Source: Fonticula-like sp. SCN 57-25 (taxonomy: Eukaryota). From it: DNA of 64,000 bases. A program made the position numbers and the translations under genes. Of the stretch, positions 25,297 through 48,406 are shown one piece after another. Below the pieces are notes generated by a model that searched no databases, was not told where the DNA came from, and saw nothing but the letters and a program-made list of their open reading frames with translations. Numbering within the stretch: the first letter of the stretch is position 1; every line of letters starts with the position of its first letter. The DNA lies in the NCBI GenBank assembly GCA_001724245.1, contig MEDX01000011.1, forward strand, positions 1-64,000, read 5' to 3'.

Positions 25297-28294
25297 ATGG
25301 CCACTCCTGCCGAGCAGCTCGGGCAAAACCTGCTCCACTCGATTGGCATCGGTACGACCTGCTTTACGAGAACGACCCGTGCGCCTGGTGCTCACCGCTG
25401 TGCTAGATAACAATCTTCGTGTTGCCGCCGAGCAAAACCTTCAGCTTGCCGCCAAGGAAAACTTGGTACGTGCCGGCCTTTGCCGCGCCTGCCCCCGTTG
25501 ACCGTCGTGCTGATGAGTGATATCAATAGGCCCTGTACCTTGACCTTCTCGTGTCCGAGCTGAGCAACTGGAATGGCAACGCGGACGTGCGCCGTGCGGC
25601 CGGTCTTGCCGCCAAGAACGCGCTCGTCTCGCGCGACCTTGCCCTCAAGGCGGAGACTGACCAGCGCTGGCTCTCGCTCGCCGCTGACCTGCGCGACTCG
25701 ATCAAGCAGAAGGTACACTTTGGGCACTGGGCGTCCATCGTTAGTAACACGGTGCATCTTAGGCTGTTAGCACGCTTTCTACGCCCGAGCCCGCGGTCGG
25801 TGCCGTCTCGGCGCAGCTCGTCGCCGCCATCGCCTCGATCGAGCTCCCGATCGGCCAGTGGGGCGATGTCATGCGCATTCTTTCAGAGGCCGTGACGAAC
25901 CCCCAGAGCGCCGCGCACATGAAGAAGGCCGCTCTTGAGGCGATTGAGTTTATTTGCGAGGATATCGTACGAGGACGCGCCGCGCTGTAGGTCCTAGACT
26001 AACTCTGTTGTAGCCTTCGGAGGCCCTTGATGCGTACTCCAACATGGTGCTCACTGCCCTTGTTGCCGGCGCGCGCCCCGAGGAGCCCAATGAGGTCCGC
26101 CGCGCCGCCATGAGCGCGCTCGGTGGTGCCATCCGCTTCTTTGACAAGAACTTTAAGCTGGAGGCGGAGCGCAACTACATCATGCAGATCGTCTGCCAGG
26201 CCACGCAGAGCCCCGACACGCAGGTGCTCATCAAGGCGTACGAGTGCCTTGTCAAGATCATGGCGTACCAGTATGAGGTCATGGCGCCCTACATGGACGT
26301 TGCCCTCGTTGGCGTACGCACAGCTTTTCGTCTTTCCGGCCTTATCTAAACGTGTGCTCTTTGCAGCTTACAATTGTCGCGATGAAGTCGCAGGACAATG
26401 ACGTTGCCATGCAGGGTATTGAATTCTGGTCGACCGTGTGCGAGGAGGAGCTGAACATTGTTATGGAGAACGCCGAGGCCATGGAGTCGAACCAGCCGCC
26501 GCCGCGCCAGTTCCACAATTTCGCGCAGGCCGCCCTGCCGCAGATCGTCCCTGTGCTGACGCACCTCTTGACTCAGCAGGAGGAGGGCGACGACGAGGAC
26601 GACTGGAACGCCTCGATGGCCGCCTCGACGTGCCTGACGCTGCTCACCAACTGCGTAACTGACAACATTCTCCCGCACATCCTCCCGTTCGTCGAGAGCA
26701 ACATTGCCAGCCAGCGGTGGCAGCAGCGCGAGGCCGCCGTAATGGCCTTTGGCTGCGTGCTCGAGGGCCCCGACCCCCGCAAGCTCGAGCCCATCGTCAC
26801 GCAGGCGCTCCCCGAGCTCGTGAACCGCATGAACGACCCCAACATTGCCGTCCAGGACACCGCCGCGTGGACCATCGGTAAGGTCTGCGAGGTCATGGGC
26901 GACAGTAACGACGGCAACAGCGTCCTCAACCAGGCCGCCATCGACGCCATCGTGCCCGTCCTGCTCCACGGACTCAAGAAGCCCGCCCGCGTCGCGTCCA
27001 ACTGCGCCTACGTACGATTCCTTGAATCTATTTCCACTGTGTTGCTGACCCTCTGACCGCCGCAGGCCCTCATGAACCTCGTGGAGCAGCTCGGCTACGA
27101 GTACGCCGAGCCCGAGAATCTCCCGTCGTTTGCCCTTTCAAAGTTCTTCTCTGACATAATCACCGCCCTTGTGCAGGCTGCCGATCGGTACGACAATGGT
27201 CTCTTTTACCCCGCTCTTTACTGACGCTTTTGTGCTTGTTTTTCAGCCCCGATGGCAGCTCGCACAACCTGCGCTCGATCACCTACGACGCCCTTTCACA
27301 ATTCGTCAGCTTCACTGCCGGCGACACCTTCCCGGTTCTTATCCAGCTCATTGAGGTTATGCTTCAGAGGTTAGAGAGCTCTGTTTCTGCGTCTGCGACT
27401 GCGCCGTCTGCGGAGAACCAGGAGCTGCAGAGCAATTTGTGCATTGTGCTCCAGGCGCTGACGCGCAAGCTTCGCCTGCACGTGCAGCCGTACGCCGACC
27501 GGATGATGACTGTCTACCTGCACATGTTCTCGAACACGACGTCGGGGAAGCAGGCGACGATTCAGGAGGACGCGCTGACTGCCGCCGCGAGCCTCATCGC
27601 CGCCATCGGCAGCGACTTTATGCGCTACCTCCCTGCGTTTGTGCCGTTTGTGTGCCAGGCGCTGCAGAACACGTCCGAGGCGTCGCTGTGCCAGATTGGC
27701 GTCGGCATTGTCGGCGACCTTGCGCGCAACCTCGGCGAGGCGATTGAGCCCTTCTGCAACCAGCTGATGACGCTCCTGCTGCAGGCGCTGCAGAGCAACA
27801 CGCTGCACCGCTCCGTCAAGCCGACCGTCATCGCCGCTTTTGGCGACGTTGCTGTTGCCATCAAGGGCGGCTTTGCGCCGTACGCGAGCGTCTGCTTTGA
27901 GGTGCTGCGCCAGGCCGCGCAGGTGCCCGCCAACCCGGACAACTATGAGCAGCACGAGTACGTCGGGCAGCTGCGCGAGGGCATCCTCGAGGGCTACTCT
28001 GGCATCGTGCAGGGCACCAAGGACGTGCAGCTGCTCGTCCCGCAGGCCGAGTTCATGCTCGTGTTCATGGCCGATTCGTTCAATGCCTTCCACTACGACT
28101 CGATGGTCCAGAACGTCGTCGCCCTGCTGGGTGACCTCTGCGACGTGTGCGGGTCGACCATCGCGCCGCTCCTCAAGCAGCACAACGAGTGGATCAAGTC
28201 GGCACTCAGGCGCGCGCGCGCGTCCAACAACCCGCAATCAAAGGAGCTCGCCGGATGGACCAACAGCAAGTTCCAAAAGGCCCTGTCAGGCTGA
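25297..28294 (+). CDS. KPNB1: Importin subunit beta-1
   Basis: AGLAAKNAL, ERNYIMQIVCQATQ, QGIEFWSTVCEEE, DDEDDWNASMAASTCL, REAAVMAFG, LHRSVKP and LREGILEGYSGIVQG. Confidence 0.96.
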
Positions 28295-28752: not shown

Positions 28753-30522
28753 ATGATGCTTTCGTCATGTAGTAGTTCCAATTTTCTCAAGACTCTTGAA
28801 TTAACGAATTTCAAGCGCTTTGCAAACATTTCCGTGCCGCTCGGCCCGAGCCCGCAGGTAATCATTGGCCGCAACGGTGCGGGCAAGACACAAATCCTCC
28901 ACGCCATCCTCTTCTACTTGCGAGCATACAACAAGCAATTTTCGGACTTGAAGGAGCCGTTCTACGTTGGCTCTGACGAGCTTTTCGGCGAAACCTTTTA
29001 TTTGGGCGACGTGAACGACGTTAGGGAATCCTTTGCTCGGCAACAGCAGTATCCTGCTGCTCGGAGCTTTTCTTTAAAGGGCACTTTTGGCGATGCCACA
29101 ACCAGCACTTTTGATTATACTCCTATGGGAGGATTAGTATTAAAGGAGACCGATCTTCGACCAAAGCGCGACTATGTTCGCTTTGCGTTCGTGCAGCCAA
29201 CCTACCAATGGGGTACCGAACGCAAGGAGAGCTACGCCACCAGGTCCCCCCAACCCCTCACTTTCCTCACGACTGGGGCGCAGCACATGCGCTGTCGCTT
29301 ATATGACTTGTCAAGTGAAGACAGAGATTTCATCGCGTCGCGCATGCAGGAGATTATTGGGTTTGACCTCTCATTTGAATTCGGCAAATTGTTGCGCACG
29401 TTTGTGGTTGACAGATCCAACAACACGCGTCTTGAAATCGCACTGTGCGGCGCCTCTCTGCAGAAACTTGTCGCCCTTTATATTTGTTTCTGTACACTGC
29501 GCACATCTGAGTTTCCGCAGCGCATTTTACTGCTGGACGAACCCGAGACACATTTGTGCGACAACGTCACAGATCGCCTTTTCCGCGCACTTGTCGCAGA
29601 CTGCGGCTCGAGTGGTGTGCAGCTGATTCTCACAAGCAACTCGCCAGTGATTATCAATCAAGTGGACCCCGCAAATCGTCTGTACCTCTCTTCCGTTTCT
29701 CCGTACGCGATGTCGTCTCCGTCGGTCGAGTACTTTTCCGAGCTGGCGCAGCTTTCAAGCAGTGGCAAGGCGGTGCTCGTCGTTGACGGACCGCATGACC
29801 GCGAGTTTGTGTTCAAGTTCATGCCAGAGATAACAGACGCTTATCAGATTATCGTCCAACAGGTTGACTGGGTGTCACGCAAGAAGATGGCGGCGGCTGT
29901 GCGCCACGAGATGAAGACAAAGATTGCGTTTCTCAGCGACAGTGGGATGCTGGCAACGCTGCCTGATGATGATGTGCAGCGCATTGAAATCGACTTGAGC
30001 GCGCATGTGAGCTCTGGTGCTAAAGCACGTGACGCCTGCGTGGTGTTGCAGCCGCTGCCTTCGATTGAGGCATATCTCCTTCTCTCTGCCTACTTGAATG
30101 GCAGCGAGGATGTGCGGCGGTCTTTCTGCCAATGCTTGATGGAATATGTGCAGAAAGGTTCATCGGCCGCTTCCTTTTCCGTCAACTTTAAAAAAACGTT
30201 CAGTGGTGTAAAGAATATTAGTGTACAGCGGAAACTTTCAACTGACCTAATGGATCAGTGCTGGGCTCGGCATGCTCGTAGCGCCTTCCTCGAGCCGGAC
30301 CAAGTGAATATTGAATCGCTGCTTCGCGTTGTTCAGGGCCATGACGTTGTTTCCAAGCTTTCGAGAACTATTTTTTCCGGTGTTGCCAATATGTCATCAA
30401 AGGCGAAAAGAAACATTTCGACATCAACTCTCGTCGAGTTGTCTGCCCCGCTTCATGCTGACGTGCTGGAACGCTTCATTACCCCAGTAAAGAGTCGGCT
30501 GCTGAACTTTCTCGCGAATTAG
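28753..30522 (+). CDS. ABC-type ATPase (AAA_15/AAA_21-like) fused to a TOPRIM-like domain; OLD-family / fused PARIS-like protein
   Basis: Intronless 589 aa. LELTNFKRF; Walker A GRNGAGKT (28867); signature-like CGASLQ; Walker B/D-loop LLLDEPETHL (about 29527); switch LTSNSP; TOPRIM-like VLVVDGPHD (29782), FLSDSG, SIEAYL and GHD. Confidence 0.8.
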   Translation: MMLSSCSSSNFLKTLELTNFKRFANISVPLGPSPQVIIGRNGAGKTQILHAILFYLRAYNKQFSDLKEPFYVGSDELFGETFYLGDVNDVRESFARQQQYPAARSFSLKGTFGDATTSTFDYTPMGGLVLKETDLRPKRDYVRFAFVQPTYQWGTERKESYATRSPQPLTFLTTGAQHMRCRLYDLSSEDRDFIASRMQEIIGFDLSFEFGKLLRTFVVDRSNNTRLEIALCGASLQKLVALYICFCTLRTSEFPQRILLLDEPETHLCDNVTDRLFRALVADCGSSGVQLILTSNSPVIINQVDPANRLYLSSVSPYAMSSPSVEYFSELAQLSSSGKAVLVVDGPHDREFVFKFMPEITDAYQIIVQQVDWVSRKKMAAAVRHEMKTKIAFLSDSGMLATLPDDDVQRIEIDLSAHVSSGAKARDACVVLQPLPSIEAYLLLSAYLNGSEDVRRSFCQCLMEYVQKGSSAASFSVNFKKTFSGVKNISVQRKLSTDLMDQCWARHARSAFLEPDQVNIESLLRVVQGHDVVSKLSRTIFSGVANMSSKAKRNISTSTLVELSAPLHADVLERFITPVKSRLLNFLAN

Positions 30523-30863
30523 GCAAGCACGAATGGGGTCTAGCCGCCACGCTGCTTCAGCTGTCTCTAGGCGGTGAGCCATCATCTATCAGTCTATCAG
30601 TTTGTGTTTTTCATTGGTAAAAGTAGAATCTCTCTCGATCAATAGTAATATTGCTTTTAGGCACATAGTATTTTCTCTGAATCGCCAAGCATTAGAAATT
30701 GCTATGATGAGACGATTTTACAATTTTATCTTTATTCTAATCTGTGATTCTGACATTGTAGGTGTGTAACACCCATACGAAAATATAAAATCAATACACG
30801 TCAATACACCCTCAGTCTGCCCATTAAAGCCTCATTGTACTGTGCTTCACATTCGCCCTACTT

Positions 30864-32818
30864 TTACCGGAATCGCCTGAGGCTGAGCAGCGTCGTGATG
30901 ACGCGCTCCTCGGCGACCTCCATGCGCGCGGCCACCTTGTGGATGCGGAGCGCCTCGGCGGGAGACGTCGTGTGCGACATCTTGTCGAGCACGTCCAAAT
31001 CTACACAGTGTGTCAGCACATTTTCCGCTTATCATGTGTCATTGAGCGCACCCTGCTCGTTTGTCTCGACGAGCAGCCGCTGCCTCAGCTTGCAGATTGT
31101 TCCGATGCACTCGCGCGTGCACTGCATCACGGCATCGTCGAGCGACGCGCGGAAGAGGAAGAATGTGCGCGAGACGGCGCGGTCGGGCGTCTTGGGGATC
31201 TCTTGCAGGCTGAGGAAGCCCGCGCTCATCATTGTGTACAGCTTGGAGCGCGCCTCATTCACGGCCACCATCGCCATTTGCGCCACCTATAAAGCACATT
31301 AGCAACAAGGTATAAAAAGGCATGGCAGCGCACCGTCTTTTGTTCGAGAAACTTTTTGTCGAGCAATATCCTAAACATGCGCCGCGACGCCGCGCCAAAC
31401 TTTTCCAGCACAATTGACTCGACCTGCGCCTGTTGTAGCGTGGCAAGGACGCGCTCGGTATCTGCGGCAAGCGCGTCAGCTTCGCAACATAACAGTTTTC
31501 CTGACGTACTGATGGCGTATGTCCCGCCGCCAATGTCGTCGATGCGGCTCAAAAAGCCCGCGGCGTCGTGCGTCAGCAGCTCGAGGTAGACGTCGAGCGT
31601 CGACTCGAGCGGGTCGGGCGACGTCCACCGGTGCCGCAGCGCCTGCACAAGCTGGTGATGTGTCACTGACGCTGAAACGGCGTCAGAATTCACATAAAGA
31701 GACGCGTAAAGGATTGACAAGACACGAAAAAGAGGAGAACTACAAGGAAAAAGGCGCATACCGGTCATTTTGCCGGGGGAAAAGAAGCCCTCGGCGGTGA
31801 TCTGCTTGTCGCCGAGCTGCACAACGCAGCCGAGGACGTCACCGGCAAACGGGCCGACCTTTTCCTTTGCAAAGCTGATGATGGCCGCCATGGCCAGGTG
31901 GTTCAGGAAGCGGTCCGTGCTGACGACCCACGGCACCTCGCCCGCGGGGATCGACGCCGATGGGGGGGCGCTCGCGACCGACGACGGCGGCGCAGAAGGC
32001 TCAACGCGGCGCTTCTTTGTCTAGAAAAAGGTGTCAGCAAGCAGCGCGTGGTCCACGTGGGGAGGGTACCTTGGAGGCATCGGCGCCATAGTCCTTTTCC
32101 TTGGGGGCGCCCTTGCTGTTGAGGCGCTCAATGTAGTGCTGCGCGGCGAGGGACTCGATGATCTCGTTCGTGCGTTGCTTTGACACTGAAAGAAAGAGAA
32201 CAAGTCAGAGAATGAAAGCAATGACAAGTGTTGTGTCGTACGTTTAAGGTGCTCGGCTTCGGCTAGGAGGACCTCGGTCGAGAGGGACCCGTGCAACAGA
32301 AGAAGGCGGATGACGGACGCATGCTGTGCACGATCGTAAGCAAAATATAAAACAAACATATAAAAAGGTCCAAAACAACAGCAACAACAACTACACGTAT
32401 AAACACTGGCGTACGTCTGCGCTAAAGAGTGACTCGGCCGCCGCGAGGAAGCGCGGGTAAAACAGGCGCAGGTGGACGCGAGGGACATCGAGTGTGTACA
32501 TGATGCTCGCCTTCACTGGCCCGCGCATGGAAACGTCCATGTCCCACTTGACAAGGCGCTGCTGAATTAGGACGAAAATGCCCGCCTGGACATGCTTGGA
32601 CTTTAGGCCCGTGTTCTTGACGATGGACGGCAGCGTTTGCCGCCCTTTCGACAAGAGACACTCGGCCATGGTCTGCCAAGGGAACAAAGTTTTGGTTAGT
32701 AAAAATGACAAAATAACATTCAATTATTCAGCGGAGCTATGTCGCTTCGCACCCCAACAAGCTCGCCATAATGATCGCCCACGAGCTCGCGGACCAACGC
32801 GACCTCGCTCGTTGCCAT
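30864..32818 (-). CDS. POLR3C: RNA polymerase III subunit RPC3 (RPC62/RPC82)
   Basis: LVGDHYGELVG|TMAECLLSKGR, VLIQQRLV, IVLEKFGAASRRMFRILLDKKFLEQK and LQEIPKTPDRAVSRTFFLF. Confidence 0.92.
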
Positions 32819-32930
32819 GCCCGCACCACGCACGATGCGTCGCAATGCGCAAACCGAGATGCAATCTGACGATGATTGGCGGAAATCCGGTGTGTCAGCG
32901 CTGTGGACGCCGTCGAGTGCCGTCGAGCGC

Positions 32931-34241
32931 ATGTTTGGGGTCGTCGTGCACGGTGCGCAAGAGATGCGGGAGGGGTGACAGCGCCAGGCCACTAATGCTT
33001 GCGTACCAGCCGGCGCTGGGTATCATAGTCCTGCCAATGAGCAAGTAAATATTGATGTCTGCAAGCGTGCGTGCGCCGCCGCGATGCGGGTGCTCGAGGC
33101 AGGCGGCTCTGCGCTCGATGCTGCAGAGGCGGCCGTCGTCGTATTAGAGGTGCGGCGCGCCGCGTGCGCTGTTTGCGCTAATGTGTTGTAATAGGACGAT
33201 CCAGTGACGAATGCGGGGCTCGGTTCGAACCTGACGATGCACGGGCGGGTCGAGTGCGATGCGGCGATCGTGGACGGCGTGACGGGTGCCATTGGCGCGG
33301 TGGGCGCCGCCCCGGGCATCAAGAACCCCGTCAAGGCGGCGCATGTGCTTTTAAAGCAGGATAGAGACAACAATTTACCACTTGGTCTTGTACCTCCAAT
33401 GTACGCCACCGCGACTGGTCGCTGCCATTGACACACCTATGTAGATTGCTGGTGGGTGAAGGCGCGTACCACTTTGCGGCCGAGCGCTCTTTAGATGTTG
33501 CCGATTCGCCCTCTAATCCGACATACTTGACAACAAGTGCGCATAATTGACCACTATACGACTGCTGACTCTGTGACAAGGCACGCGGCTGGCGTCGCAT
33601 GAGCGGCACCTCGCCCGCCTGCGCGACCACTCGACCTCGGTTGCGGACCGGTACGAGGAGGGTAACCACGACACCGTCGGGGCCGTCTGCATCGACGAAC
33701 GAGGCCATGTGGCAGCCGCTGTATCGTCCGGCGGCATGATTTTGAAGCAGCCCGGGCGTGTCGGCCACGTACGCAAAACACTGTTTTTGCGCTCCACTCG
33801 CTAATATCCACGCAGGCGTCGATTCCGGGGTGCGGCTGCCACGCCGCGATGCCCTCAGGCGCTGCCGTCGGAGTGAGCGTAACGGGAAAAGGGGAGCAGA
33901 TAATGAAGACGGCCTTGGGCCGCGTCGTGTGCGAGGCGGCGGCGTCGGCGGACGAGCCGCCATTGGCCGTGCGGTCGGTCGTCCGCGAGGCCTTTCTGGA
34001 CGCCCCGGCGCTCGCGCGATATCCGGAACGGGATGCCGGGCTGGTGCTCCTGCGTATGCGCGAGGGCGTGCTCGACGTGCTGTGGGCGCACACGACGCCG
34101 AGCATGATCGTCGCCTACGCGACGTCGCGGTCGAGAAAGCCGCGCGGTGTTGTTTCGCGCAAGGAGGCGCACGAACGGATTGTTGTTTCGGGTACAAAAT
34201 GTGTGTGCGGCGGCGAGCATGCAACAGTACAACTTATGTAA
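32931..34241 (+). CDS. TASP1: Threonine aspartase 1 (Taspase1, Ntn-hydrolase)
   Basis: VVHG|xAGYHS, LE|DDPVTNAGLGSNLT...ECDA and autocleavage site D/TVGAVC...AAAVSSGGMILKQPGRVG. Confidence 0.9.
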
Positions 34242-47457: not shown

Positions 47458-48406
47458 CTACCCCGAGTCTGTTGAAAAGTTGTCGTAGCTCTCGAGATCC
47501 GCGAGCTGCTCCTTGTTGATCCAGCCCTGCACGGCGGCCTTGCGGAAGGCGCACCTGGCATGGTGGTTGAGCACCCTGAGGAACGGGATCTTGTCATCGG
47601 GCAGGATGAGCGGCCTGTTTTGCAACTCGCTCCACTTTAGCGGGTCATTCTTTACGACGCGCTTGTTGAGCAGCGCCGGGTTGAGGACCTGCAGCAGCAG
47701 CCTTCTCGACTTGTCGTTCTCGAACGGGTTGTAAAAGAAGCAAATTTCCTTCTGGTCAAACGCCTCCTCAATGTTCTTGTCGAGCAGGAGGCCGTTGCGC
47801 GGGTTGCTCTCGGCGTCGCGCGGGAGACCAAGCGCAATCCACTTGTTGGACCGCCGCTTGAGGCGGCTCGGCATCAGATGCGCGGCCACAACTTCGCCCG
47901 TGTTGCGGCCGAGAATCATGCAGTCCACCTTCTTGCCAATGTTGTAGGGCTGGTAGTACGCGATCACCGCACGCCGGAACTGGTGCTGGTCGGTCGAGTT
48001 GTAACTCGACGCGGCGTCGCTCACGCTCAGCTCCCAAAAGTCCGGCGGCTCGCTGATATCCGGGAACAGGAGCGAGCTCTCAACAGGGACCGGCGGGCGC
48101 CGCCGCCGCACCGTCACATATATCGTCAACCGCTTCGCGCCGGCGGGGACGGGTGGAAGCGGCTCACCAAGGTCAACGCCAATGATCGGCTTTCCATCGT
48201 ACGTGATCTACAACGGGCACCAGTGAGAATCCCTGGTGTTGCCTCACAACCCCGCGTACAGTGACATCCTCGTAGTTGATCGCGTCGCTAAGACGACCCA
48301 CGTTGAACGTGTCAGTAATGCGGTCGCGCACTTGGTACCACGCAGAGTCCTCGTCGTCAAACTCGTAGCCGCCCGTGGCGTCGCCCGTCCAGAACACGCG
48401 CACCAT
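47458..48406 (-). CDS. HNH endonuclease (HNH_2-like) with N-terminal ubiquitin-like header; Crinkler-like effector
   Basis: Two exons (48406-48260, 48207-47458; 52-nt GTACGC..TAG intron) giving 298 aa; FRRAVIAYY, CMILG, AAHLMP, NPRNGLLLDKNIEEAFD and PFLRVLNHHA. Confidence 0.8.

Follow-up and report, generated by a model that had tools for sequence, protein, structure and literature searches.

An intact single-exon gene for a predicted ABC ATPase–TOPRIM protein in the nuclear genome of a Fonticula-like protist

We analyzed a stretch of 64,000 nucleotides from Fonticula-like sp. SCN 57-25 (positions 1 to 64,000 of contig MEDX01000011.1, assembly GCA_001724245.1), in the following called the window, with respect to one gene lying between the genes for importin beta-1 and RPC3. 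The gene encodes a protein of 589 amino acids (P0001) which combines an N-terminal ATP-binding cassette (ABC) ATPase with a C-terminal half that appears to be a TOPRIM-type domain. It is an intact single-exon nuclear gene of a eukaryote on a metagenome-derived contig, and it belongs to a eukaryotic family which is represented here by 30 protein clusters, the 30 rows of the alignment referred to throughout. The features of the gene are the following.

28753..30522, forward strand: open reading frame (ORF) of protein P0001, a complete single exon with ATG start, 589 amino acids plus stop
28753..29712, forward strand: ABC ATPase head, residues 1 to about 320, compact and without a long coiled-coil insert
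28867..28890, forward strand: Walker A GRNGAGKT, residues 39-46; GK[TS] in 24/24 family rows covering this region
29449..29466, forward strand: ABC signature-like GASLQK, residues 233-238; Q237 and K238 nearly invariant
29524..29541, forward strand: Walker B ILLLDE, residues 258-263; E263 and E265 invariant in the family
29638..29640, forward strand: H-loop position, Asn296; His in the bacterial relative P0060
29764..30102, forward strand: predicted TOPRIM-type core, residues about 338-450; four beta strands alternating with helices in the structural model
29785..29799, forward strand: TOPRIM motif 1, D345-G-P-H-D349, aligned with AriB E26-G-R-H-D30; [DE]G in 30/30 rows
29938..29946, forward strand: TOPRIM motif 2, D396-S-G398, aligned with AriB D88-R-E90; the second acid is absent in the window copy
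30061..30069, forward strand: motif 3, S437-I-E439; Glu invariant (30/30 rows)
30103..30519, forward strand: C-terminal helical region, residues about 451-589, modelled as helices over 452-588 and aligned across the family
30337..30342, forward strand: G529-H530, a conserved basic/His position in the C-terminal helical part; His in 23 of 30 rows, Lys/Arg in 6 and Asp in 1

The ORF is far beyond chance because a stop-free frame of 596 codons at about 51% GC has by our own arithmetic a chance of roughly 1e-12 and because the translation matches a protein family with E values down to 4.7e-52. Both ends of the ORF correspond in the alignment to the ends of full-length homologues. When 31 family and outgroup queries were compared with the window, positions 28753..30522 were the sole matching place, i.e., there is one copy within these 64 kb. 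A previous interpretation of this DNA made from the letters alone, here called the sequence-only reading, had pointed to the 1770-nt ORF and quoted a series of motifs, all of which we find as described. In addition to Walker A these are NFKRF (residues 19-23), LLLDEPETHL (259-268, comprising Walker B and the D-loop), LTSNSP (293-298, in the H-loop region), VVDGPHD (343-349), SDSG (395-398), SIEAYL (437-442), and GHD (529-531).

Judged by its sequence, the N-terminal half belongs to the ABC ATPases of the AAA_15/AAA_21 type, as had been proposed. The Pfam matches to AAA_15 (E 1.9e-12, 47.9 bits), SMC_N and AAA_21 (E 9e-10, 39.5 bits) are all above the cut-offs, and the best matches in PADLOC are NsnB (E 3.9e-16), PtuA, AriA, GajA, and the fused AriAB, whose best stretch (residues 247-369) extends into TOPRIM motif 1. 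At the H-loop position Asn is found in 25 of the 30 family rows, His in two, Ile in two and Cys in one; because the His is mostly replaced by Asn, ATP turnover in the family may be atypical. Most family members also read LYP at a place where P0020 and P0027 read LH; LHP is the consensus of typical AAA_15 proteins. An SMC, Rad50 or RecF housekeeping ATPase was considered and rejected: the recF score is 33.5 bits versus an NCBIfam cut-off of 172, SMC and Rad50 reach about 20 bits versus cut-offs of at least 700, and the structural model contains no coiled coil. The sequence-only reading had itself named membership in a vertically inherited eukaryotic SMC/Rad50/ABC family as a result that would refute it. 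This does not apply, as the protein is no SMC or Rad50 ATPase, but the gene does belong to a eukaryotic family.

For the C-terminal half there is weak-to-moderate evidence that it is a TOPRIM-type domain with DUF4435/AriB as nearest neighbor, which in substance agrees with the TOPRIM-like half described before. The assignment is based on the comparison of family profiles with AriB, on hhalign, on the topology of the AlphaFold2 (AF2) model and on the Atlas neighbors. The AF2 model, built with 45 aligned sequences, has a predicted local distance difference test score (pLDDT) of 85.5 and a predicted template modelling score (pTM) of 0.82; a single-sequence model with a pLDDT of 35 was discarded. 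In the model, strands (E) and helices (H) follow each other in the order E340-344, H347-363, E364-368, H373-387, E391-395, H398-421, E428-432, and H438-449. The acidic motifs directly follow strands 1 and 3, and the invariant Glu directly follows strand 4. A strand–helix order of this kind with acids after strands 1 and 3 and a Glu after strand 4 is the TOPRIM layout.

On the sequence level, a profile of 18 family sequences matches AriB (8ux9_A) over profile positions 328-427, and with a profile of nine C-terminal sequences only AriB is the top PDB match, motifs 1 and 2 being in register: LLVEGRHD of AriB aligns with L(L/V)VDGxxD of the family and FLCDREF with LRDxEF. The Pfam family DUF4435 itself is matched by one of 18 family members (E 4.6e-4) and by none of nine family C-terminal pieces at E<=1. 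When the family C-domain is compared by hhalign, the C-terminus of P0060 reaches a probability of 92.9% (165 columns); this protein is annotated as an "ATP-dependent nuclease" of Methylobacterium and carries AAA_15 together with DUF4435 (30.6 bits). P0053, whose OLD-like_TOPRIM match is weak, reaches 95.5% (95 columns), and P0049, whose match to OLD-like_TOPRIM is strong (PF20469, 1.8e-13), only 14%. The Atlas searches with residues 325-589 are to be taken as a lead only: DUF4435 clusters make up 10 of the 30 nearest by features, and by structure they reach a query-normalised TM score of 0.59-0.61, an OLD-like_TOPRIM cluster 0.43. Fold searches with the whole model are dominated by the ATPase head, and the absence of AriB from those lists is therefore no evidence.

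The metal ligands of AriB are E26, D30, D88, E90, and E122, and the exchange E26A abolishes defence (PMC11464382). In the family, position 1 is Asp or Glu in 30/30 rows, position 2 Asp in 28/30, position 3 Asp in 27/30, and position 4 Glu or Asp in 29/30; all 30 rows have the Glu of the (C/S)xE motif. The window protein retains four of the five acids, D345, D349, D396, and E439, the last of which would by order and spacing be the counterpart of AriB E122. In place of the E90 counterpart it carries G398, the only Gly at the DxE position among the 30 rows. Judging from the conserved acidic positions in the alignment, the family has on the whole the appearance of an active two-metal nuclease. Because the window copy alone lacks the second acid of DxE, and with it one predicted ligand, its nuclease may be weakened or retuned.

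An exhaustive phmmer search with the window protein gave 381 proteins at E<=1e-3, six of them at E<=1e-30. The C-domain profile recognises 35 of the best 150 phmmer matches at E below 1e-8, and 29 of these 35 together with P0151 constitute the 30 rows of the alignment and the tree. At least seven proteins are from Capsaspora owczarzaki (P0002, P0003, P0004, P0151, P0005, P0152, and P0037), which are 29-36% identical to the window protein and comprise its closest relative (36% identity, E 4.7e-52). Further members are found in the EukProt transcriptomes of the amoebozoans Thecamoeba quadrilineata and Dermamoeba algensis, and one more is an unnamed EukProt transcriptome protein. The remaining members are metagenome or Logan sequences, often on contigs of 1.6-2.6 kb, with one contig of 151 kb and one of 1.07 Mb. 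The contigs of P0007-P0012, P0027, P0034, P0035, P0044, and P0072 are in this short range and thus about one mRNA long, which would fit a metatranscriptome or a monocistronic eukaryotic origin; at the ends of the loci L001-L004 no poly(A) was seen. One Capsaspora family member, to which P0005 and P0152 of the same cluster correspond (CAOG_01040 and CAOG_009376, models of 952 and 1231 amino acids), is annotated with an N-terminal Rho-GAP fusion, i.e., a eukaryote-specific domain on a prokaryote-type defence core.

In the tree, which was obtained by a quick maximum-likelihood search with support from the Shimodaira–Hasegawa-like approximate likelihood ratio test (SH-aLRT) only, the 30 family rows are monophyletic with respect to 10 bacterial-like ABC–TOPRIM proteins (SH-aLRT 99). 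Within the family, six Capsaspora rows and P0020 form a clade whose sister is the window protein (SH-aLRT 98), and the other 22 rows including both amoebozoans form a second branch (SH-aLRT 92). The deep order needs care because several rows have long branches and an unusual composition.

The gene is bordered by two genes of eukaryotic type, so that its placement between importin-beta and RPC3 on a eukaryotic chromosome, as given in the sequence-only reading, is borne out.

27230..28294, forward strand: last long exon of importin beta-1 (PF25574, E 1.1e-89), upstream of the ORF
31262..32723, reverse strand: exons of RPC3/RPC82 (POLR3C; PF05645, PF22536, PF08221), downstream of the ORF

From reading the sequence only, the RPC3/RPC82 frame seems to extend in the 3′ direction to about 30870. 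Introns of 55-100 bp with GTACG...CAG ends can be read directly in both neighboring genes, whereas the ORF has none over its 1770 nt, again as had been noted. In the host introns at 26960-27260 and 31200-32760 a CTGAC-like motif precedes the CAG acceptor and could possibly aid in placing the host. Other genes of the window identified by Pfam are COPB2, a Sec7 protein, a P-type ATPase and a GDP-mannose dehydratase. An open frame of 249 codons at 47461-48207 on the reverse strand contains an HNH_2 endonuclease domain (PF13391, E 2.5e-10) and with a GC content at third codon positions (GC3) of 0.84 is host-like; it is a second nuclease-type domain on this eukaryotic contig. No Rfam families were found in the 64-kb window, and no direct or inverted repeats flanking the ORF.

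The ORF also differs in composition, with a GC content of 0.51 and a GC3 of 0.59, in contrast to a GC3 of 0.80-0.89 in the Pfam-confirmed neighboring exons (importin-beta 0.83, COPB2 0.87, P-type ATPase 0.89, Sec7 0.87); one RPC3 exon has 0.70. The lower GC content and deviating codon endings reported earlier are therefore real. The low GC3 may stem from weak expression, with the codons left unadapted, or from the gene having come in later from a source of lower GC; together with the missing introns it is compatible with a gene of low expression as well as with one that arrived relatively late from a virus or another eukaryote. Among 18 listed strain differences inside the ORF 7 are synonymous and 11 non-synonymous. 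With 411 synonymous sites and 1356 non-synonymous ones, the ratio of non-synonymous to synonymous polymorphism (pN/pS) is about 0.48, a suggestive value that does not reach significance; 40 further differences across the 9-kb stretch lie outside the listed single-nucleotide polymorphisms (SNPs). Between 29563 and 29605 there are 5 differences in 43 bp between the window and a contig from sequencing run X1, 4 of which change amino acids (N271D, T273S, D274E, and G285R, in the helix after the D-loop).

Among the sequencing runs the best match to the stretch is a bioreactor metagenome run with 0.96 of the sampled words, and other studies contribute lower shares from aquatic, wastewater, soil, and "fungus" metagenomes. 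In run X1 one contig spans 25000-28965 from importin-beta into the ORF (depth 14.9) and a second one 29028-34000 from the ORF through RPC3 (depth 15.6). The gap in between is bridged by two 122-bp variants at 28936-29057. One of these is identical to the window (depth 16.8) and the other has nine differences (depth 6.3), which suggests that the sample contains a further allele, strain or copy. As X1 is probably the sample from which the window itself derives, its support is not independent. Short fragments of the ORF and of both intergenic flanks are also present in runs X2, X3, and X6 from three other studies, where their depth is low but comparable, and some SNPs are common to these studies. 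X3 and X6 leave parts of the stretch uncovered, and codon 398 has only thin coverage in the other runs. An X1 contig joining 27934 to 33700 was set aside as likely foreign, since only 21 letters lie on one side of the joint.

Taking the domain structure and the family together, on balance we favor the interpretation that the gene is an intact member of a eukaryotic ABC ATPase–TOPRIM family of PARIS/OLD descent in which a sensor ATPase gates a nuclease. We infer that the family descends from prokaryotic conflict systems of the OLD/PARIS type and that its TOPRIM domain has more in common with DUF4435/AriB than with the canonical OLD TOPRIM. By analogy with these systems the ATPase head would keep the nuclease inactive until a foreign protein or an aberrant nucleic acid is met; the two-metal TOPRIM site would then cut tRNA or DNA, and this cleavage would arrest the infected cell.

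Several observations weigh against this interpretation. Residues 311-589 alone match no TOPRIM-type Pfam family at E<=10, their sole Pfam match being a weak and unrelated one to Succ_CoA_lig (E 0.015), and the C-terminal half alone matches nothing in PADLOC at E<=10 either, so that the identity of this half rests on family-level evidence. The sequence link to AriB is weak, with E 0.0035 for the full profile and 0.094 for the C-only profile, and the whole-chain structural matches to OLD and GajA have a root-mean-square deviation (rmsd) near 11 A. With G398 a predicted metal ligand is lost, and in 25 of the 30 members Asn has replaced the H-loop His. The GC3 of the ORF falls among the non-coding frames of the window (about 0.55-0.65), pN/pS is not significantly below 1, and none of the 21 listed sequencing runs is recorded as RNA. 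Finally, we know of no partner gene, trigger or target for any eukaryotic member.

A more specific version is that the 30-cluster family is a eukaryotic one-chain abortive infection system of the PARIS type in amorphean protists (Filasterea, discosean Amoebozoa, and the host protist), which would cut tRNA on sensing proteins of giant or other viruses, and would be distinct from the OLD lineage to which the Capsaspora copies have been assigned. We put this forward tentatively, as a possibility rather than an expectation. In the literature searched we found neither the amoebozoan/metagenomic branch (22 of the 30 rows) nor the affinity to DUF4435.

Among the competing explanations a comparatively late arrival of the gene from another eukaryote or a eukaryotic virus survives best, though we think it rather unlikely. 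If the family hops between protists, its patchy distribution over Filasterea, Amoebozoa, and other protists and the unadapted codon usage of the window copy would follow. The GC3 is indeed unlike that of the host exons, but could equally reflect low expression. Host and gene also differ in their apparent affinities. The COPB2 protein of the host matches proteins of chytrids, fish and plants equally, at 52-57% identity, and is in a tree of 24 rows weakly sister to three chytrids (SH-aLRT 86), whereas the OLD-like protein groups with Capsaspora; the COPB2 sample, however, was without Amoebozoa and Filasterea, so that we place the host no further than as neither animal nor plant. As to a viral source, giant viruses of the Klosneuvirus type encode full-length look-alikes: in a Foldseek search of BFVD, "ATP-dependent endonuclease" proteins of Catovirus, Terrestrivirus, and Hyperionvirus align over the full length. 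The matches A0A1V0SA06, A0A3G4ZNS6, A0A1V0S9W3, and A0A3G5AE40 of this group, AAA or "ATP-dependent endonuclease" proteins, are 630-850 amino acids long. They are, however, only 9-11% identical, and a motif-seeded scan of viral contigs gave 0 relatives of the family among 19 pattern matches. Moreover, with a long branch of its own (1.38) and at most 36% identity to anything, P0001 has no visible donor.

Alternatively, the gene could be a decaying or catalytically dead relic which is drifting or has taken over a non-catalytic role. This we consider unlikely. Gly398 stands where 29 of the 30 family members keep an acid, the GC3 resembles that of non-coding frames, pN/pS on 18 sites is not clearly below 1, and there is no RNA run among the 21 listed. 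Yet 589 codons are free of stops and frameshifts, Walker A, Walker B, and the signature are intact, only one of the five TOPRIM acids is lost, the conserved His is still there, and the AF2 model is confident through the C-domain. The listed amino acid differences between strains are in addition mostly conservative (T/S, V/I, L/V, R/K, N/D, and D/E).

Slightly less probable still is a recent direct transfer from a bacterium, phage or plasmid with the gene not yet adapted to its host. It is the explanation at which the sequence-only reading had arrived, and the lack of introns among intron-rich neighbors, the GC3 of 0.59, and an architecture typical of prokaryotic defence proteins all speak for it. 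The best matches are, however, eukaryotic, and the named bacterial relative P0060 reaches only E 1.6e-7 with about 29% identity over 167 residues. In a tblastn search 50,697 phage records gave no match to the window protein, and 72,556 plasmids gave only two Thermus matches to the first 75 residues, i.e., 12% of the query. A motif-seeded scan of the genomes of 185,579 prokaryotic species found a single weak match in a metagenome-assembled genome, restricted to ATPase residues 215-316; like the scan of viral contigs it was seeded by patterns and can miss distant relatives. A scan of metagenome contigs with tighter alignment gave four short contigs and no useful context. Repeats which could mark an insertion are missing at the flanks. 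As the nearest relatives are eukaryotic and the family is monophyletic with respect to the bacterial-like proteins, the gene is not a recognisable bacterial import, and the claim of a horizontal acquisition is in this form not supported. That the assembly is chimeric, or that contaminating bacterial sequence was joined to eukaryotic DNA, is hardly credible in spite of the metagenome origin, the best match to a bioreactor run, and the composition of the ORF, because the X1 contigs run from either side into the ORF, because three other studies carry pieces of the ORF and of its flanks, and because the closest homologues are eukaryotic.

To return to the interpretation as a eukaryotic ABC ATPase–TOPRIM protein, prokaryotic defence modules which persist in eukaryotes are candidates for unrecognised innate immunity. 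OLD, PARIS, and Gabija are understood mechanistically in bacteria, and to our knowledge no eukaryotic member has been studied in this way. The present gene adds an intact copy firmly placed between housekeeping genes of a free-living protist which occurs in several kinds of metagenomes. It widens the family by an amoebozoan and environmental branch, and adds an indication that the nuclease domain of the family resembles AriB of PARIS more than OLD. Should the family be antiviral, Capsaspora, or amoebae together with their giant viruses, would offer tractable systems for demonstrating this role. With respect to the sequence-only reading, its interpretation of the domains was essentially right, while its evolutionary and novelty claims were overstated.

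Among the known systems, PARIS consists of an AAA_15/AAA_21 ATPase and a DUF4435 protein, encoded by two genes or by one fused gene, and is reported from 5.2% of prokaryotic genomes (Rousset 2022, PMC9122126). AriA sequesters AriB, and a phage trigger frees AriB, which then cleaves host tRNA (PMC11464382). The window protein shares the domain order of the single-gene AAA_15/AAA_21–DUF4435 fusion. AriB is the top PDB sequence match of its C-domain, with EGRHD and DRE in register, and the hhalign value of 92.9% relates it to the bacterial AAA_15–DUF4435 protein P0060. Measured against the PARIS detection thresholds (at least 32 bits for AAA_15 or at least 27 bits for AAA_21, and at least 27 bits for DUF4435, PF14491; PMC9122126) its ATPase scores of 47.9 and 39.5 bits are sufficient, whereas DUF4435 is not matched, neither by the whole protein at E<=1 nor by residues 311-589 at E<=10. 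It further deviates from PARIS in an ATPase head without long inserts, in the Asn of the H-loop, in having four instead of all five acids, and in its eukaryotic host. In PARIS, Ocr-like proteins are the trigger and tRNA is the target.

Like the class 1 OLD proteins (Thermus scotoductus OLD, 6p74; phage P2 Old), the window protein has an N-terminal ABC ATPase and a C-terminal TOPRIM-type domain in one chain, and Foldseek detects this likeness with its model (E 3.1e-10). The phage P2 OLD has been reported to be a tRNase which is opened by loss of the tetramer (preprint 10.64898/2026.07.10.737580). In contrast, the family C-domain gives the mentioned 14% with a strong OLD-like_TOPRIM protein, and the rmsd is 10.8 A, so that the packing of the domains differs or is not comparable. 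The Pfam family OLD-like_TOPRIM (PF20469) is absent from the window protein and from the families listed (25 of 32) for 18 members. In Gabija, GajA has GajB as its neighbor; next to the window gene a GajB-like (UvrD-like) helicase is not present, the flanking genes being importin beta-1 and RPC82, and the sequence likeness to GajA is confined to the ATPase motifs. The main text of a preprint on eukaryotic OLD-like genes states that GajB is not found in eukaryotes (10.64898/2026.08.18.745644). PtuA of Septu and retrons works with a separate HNH nuclease, PtuB, unlike the fused TOPRIM-type effector of the window protein.

The same preprint (Maaroufi 2026) describes OLD-like genes in SAR (stramenopiles, alveolates, and Rhizaria), Filasterea, chytrids, and several invertebrate phyla, counts 13 of them in Capsaspora, and cites Krishnan et al. 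2020 for the transfer of OLD to Capsaspora and Crassostrea. Since eukaryotic OLD-like ABC–TOPRIM genes are thus in print, the window gene does not represent an undescribed system as the sequence-only reading had suggested, and the single locus is less remarkable than first thought. The main text of the preprint names two accessions, neither of which is among the Capsaspora relatives found here, but remarks on a Tyr at the D-loop His position in Capsaspora. We see this Tyr in the Capsaspora rows of our alignment, and our relatives are therefore probably the Capsaspora proteins of that preprint. The words Amoebozoa, DUF4435, and PARIS do not occur in its main text, and in the literature searched no eukaryotic DUF4435 or PARIS-like family was found. 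The window protein differs from the Capsaspora copies, to none of which it is more than 36% identical, and has Cys at the D-loop His position and Gly at DxE. It shares with the eukaryotic OLD-like proteins the ABC ATPase and TOPRIM domain in one chain, the frequent lack of introns, and the length (577-844 amino acids). It resides in a eukaryotic genome, is closer to eukaryotic than to prokaryotic homologues, and is sister to the clade of Capsaspora paralogues. The gene is accordingly a somewhat divergent new member of a eukaryotic ABC–TOPRIM family already on record.

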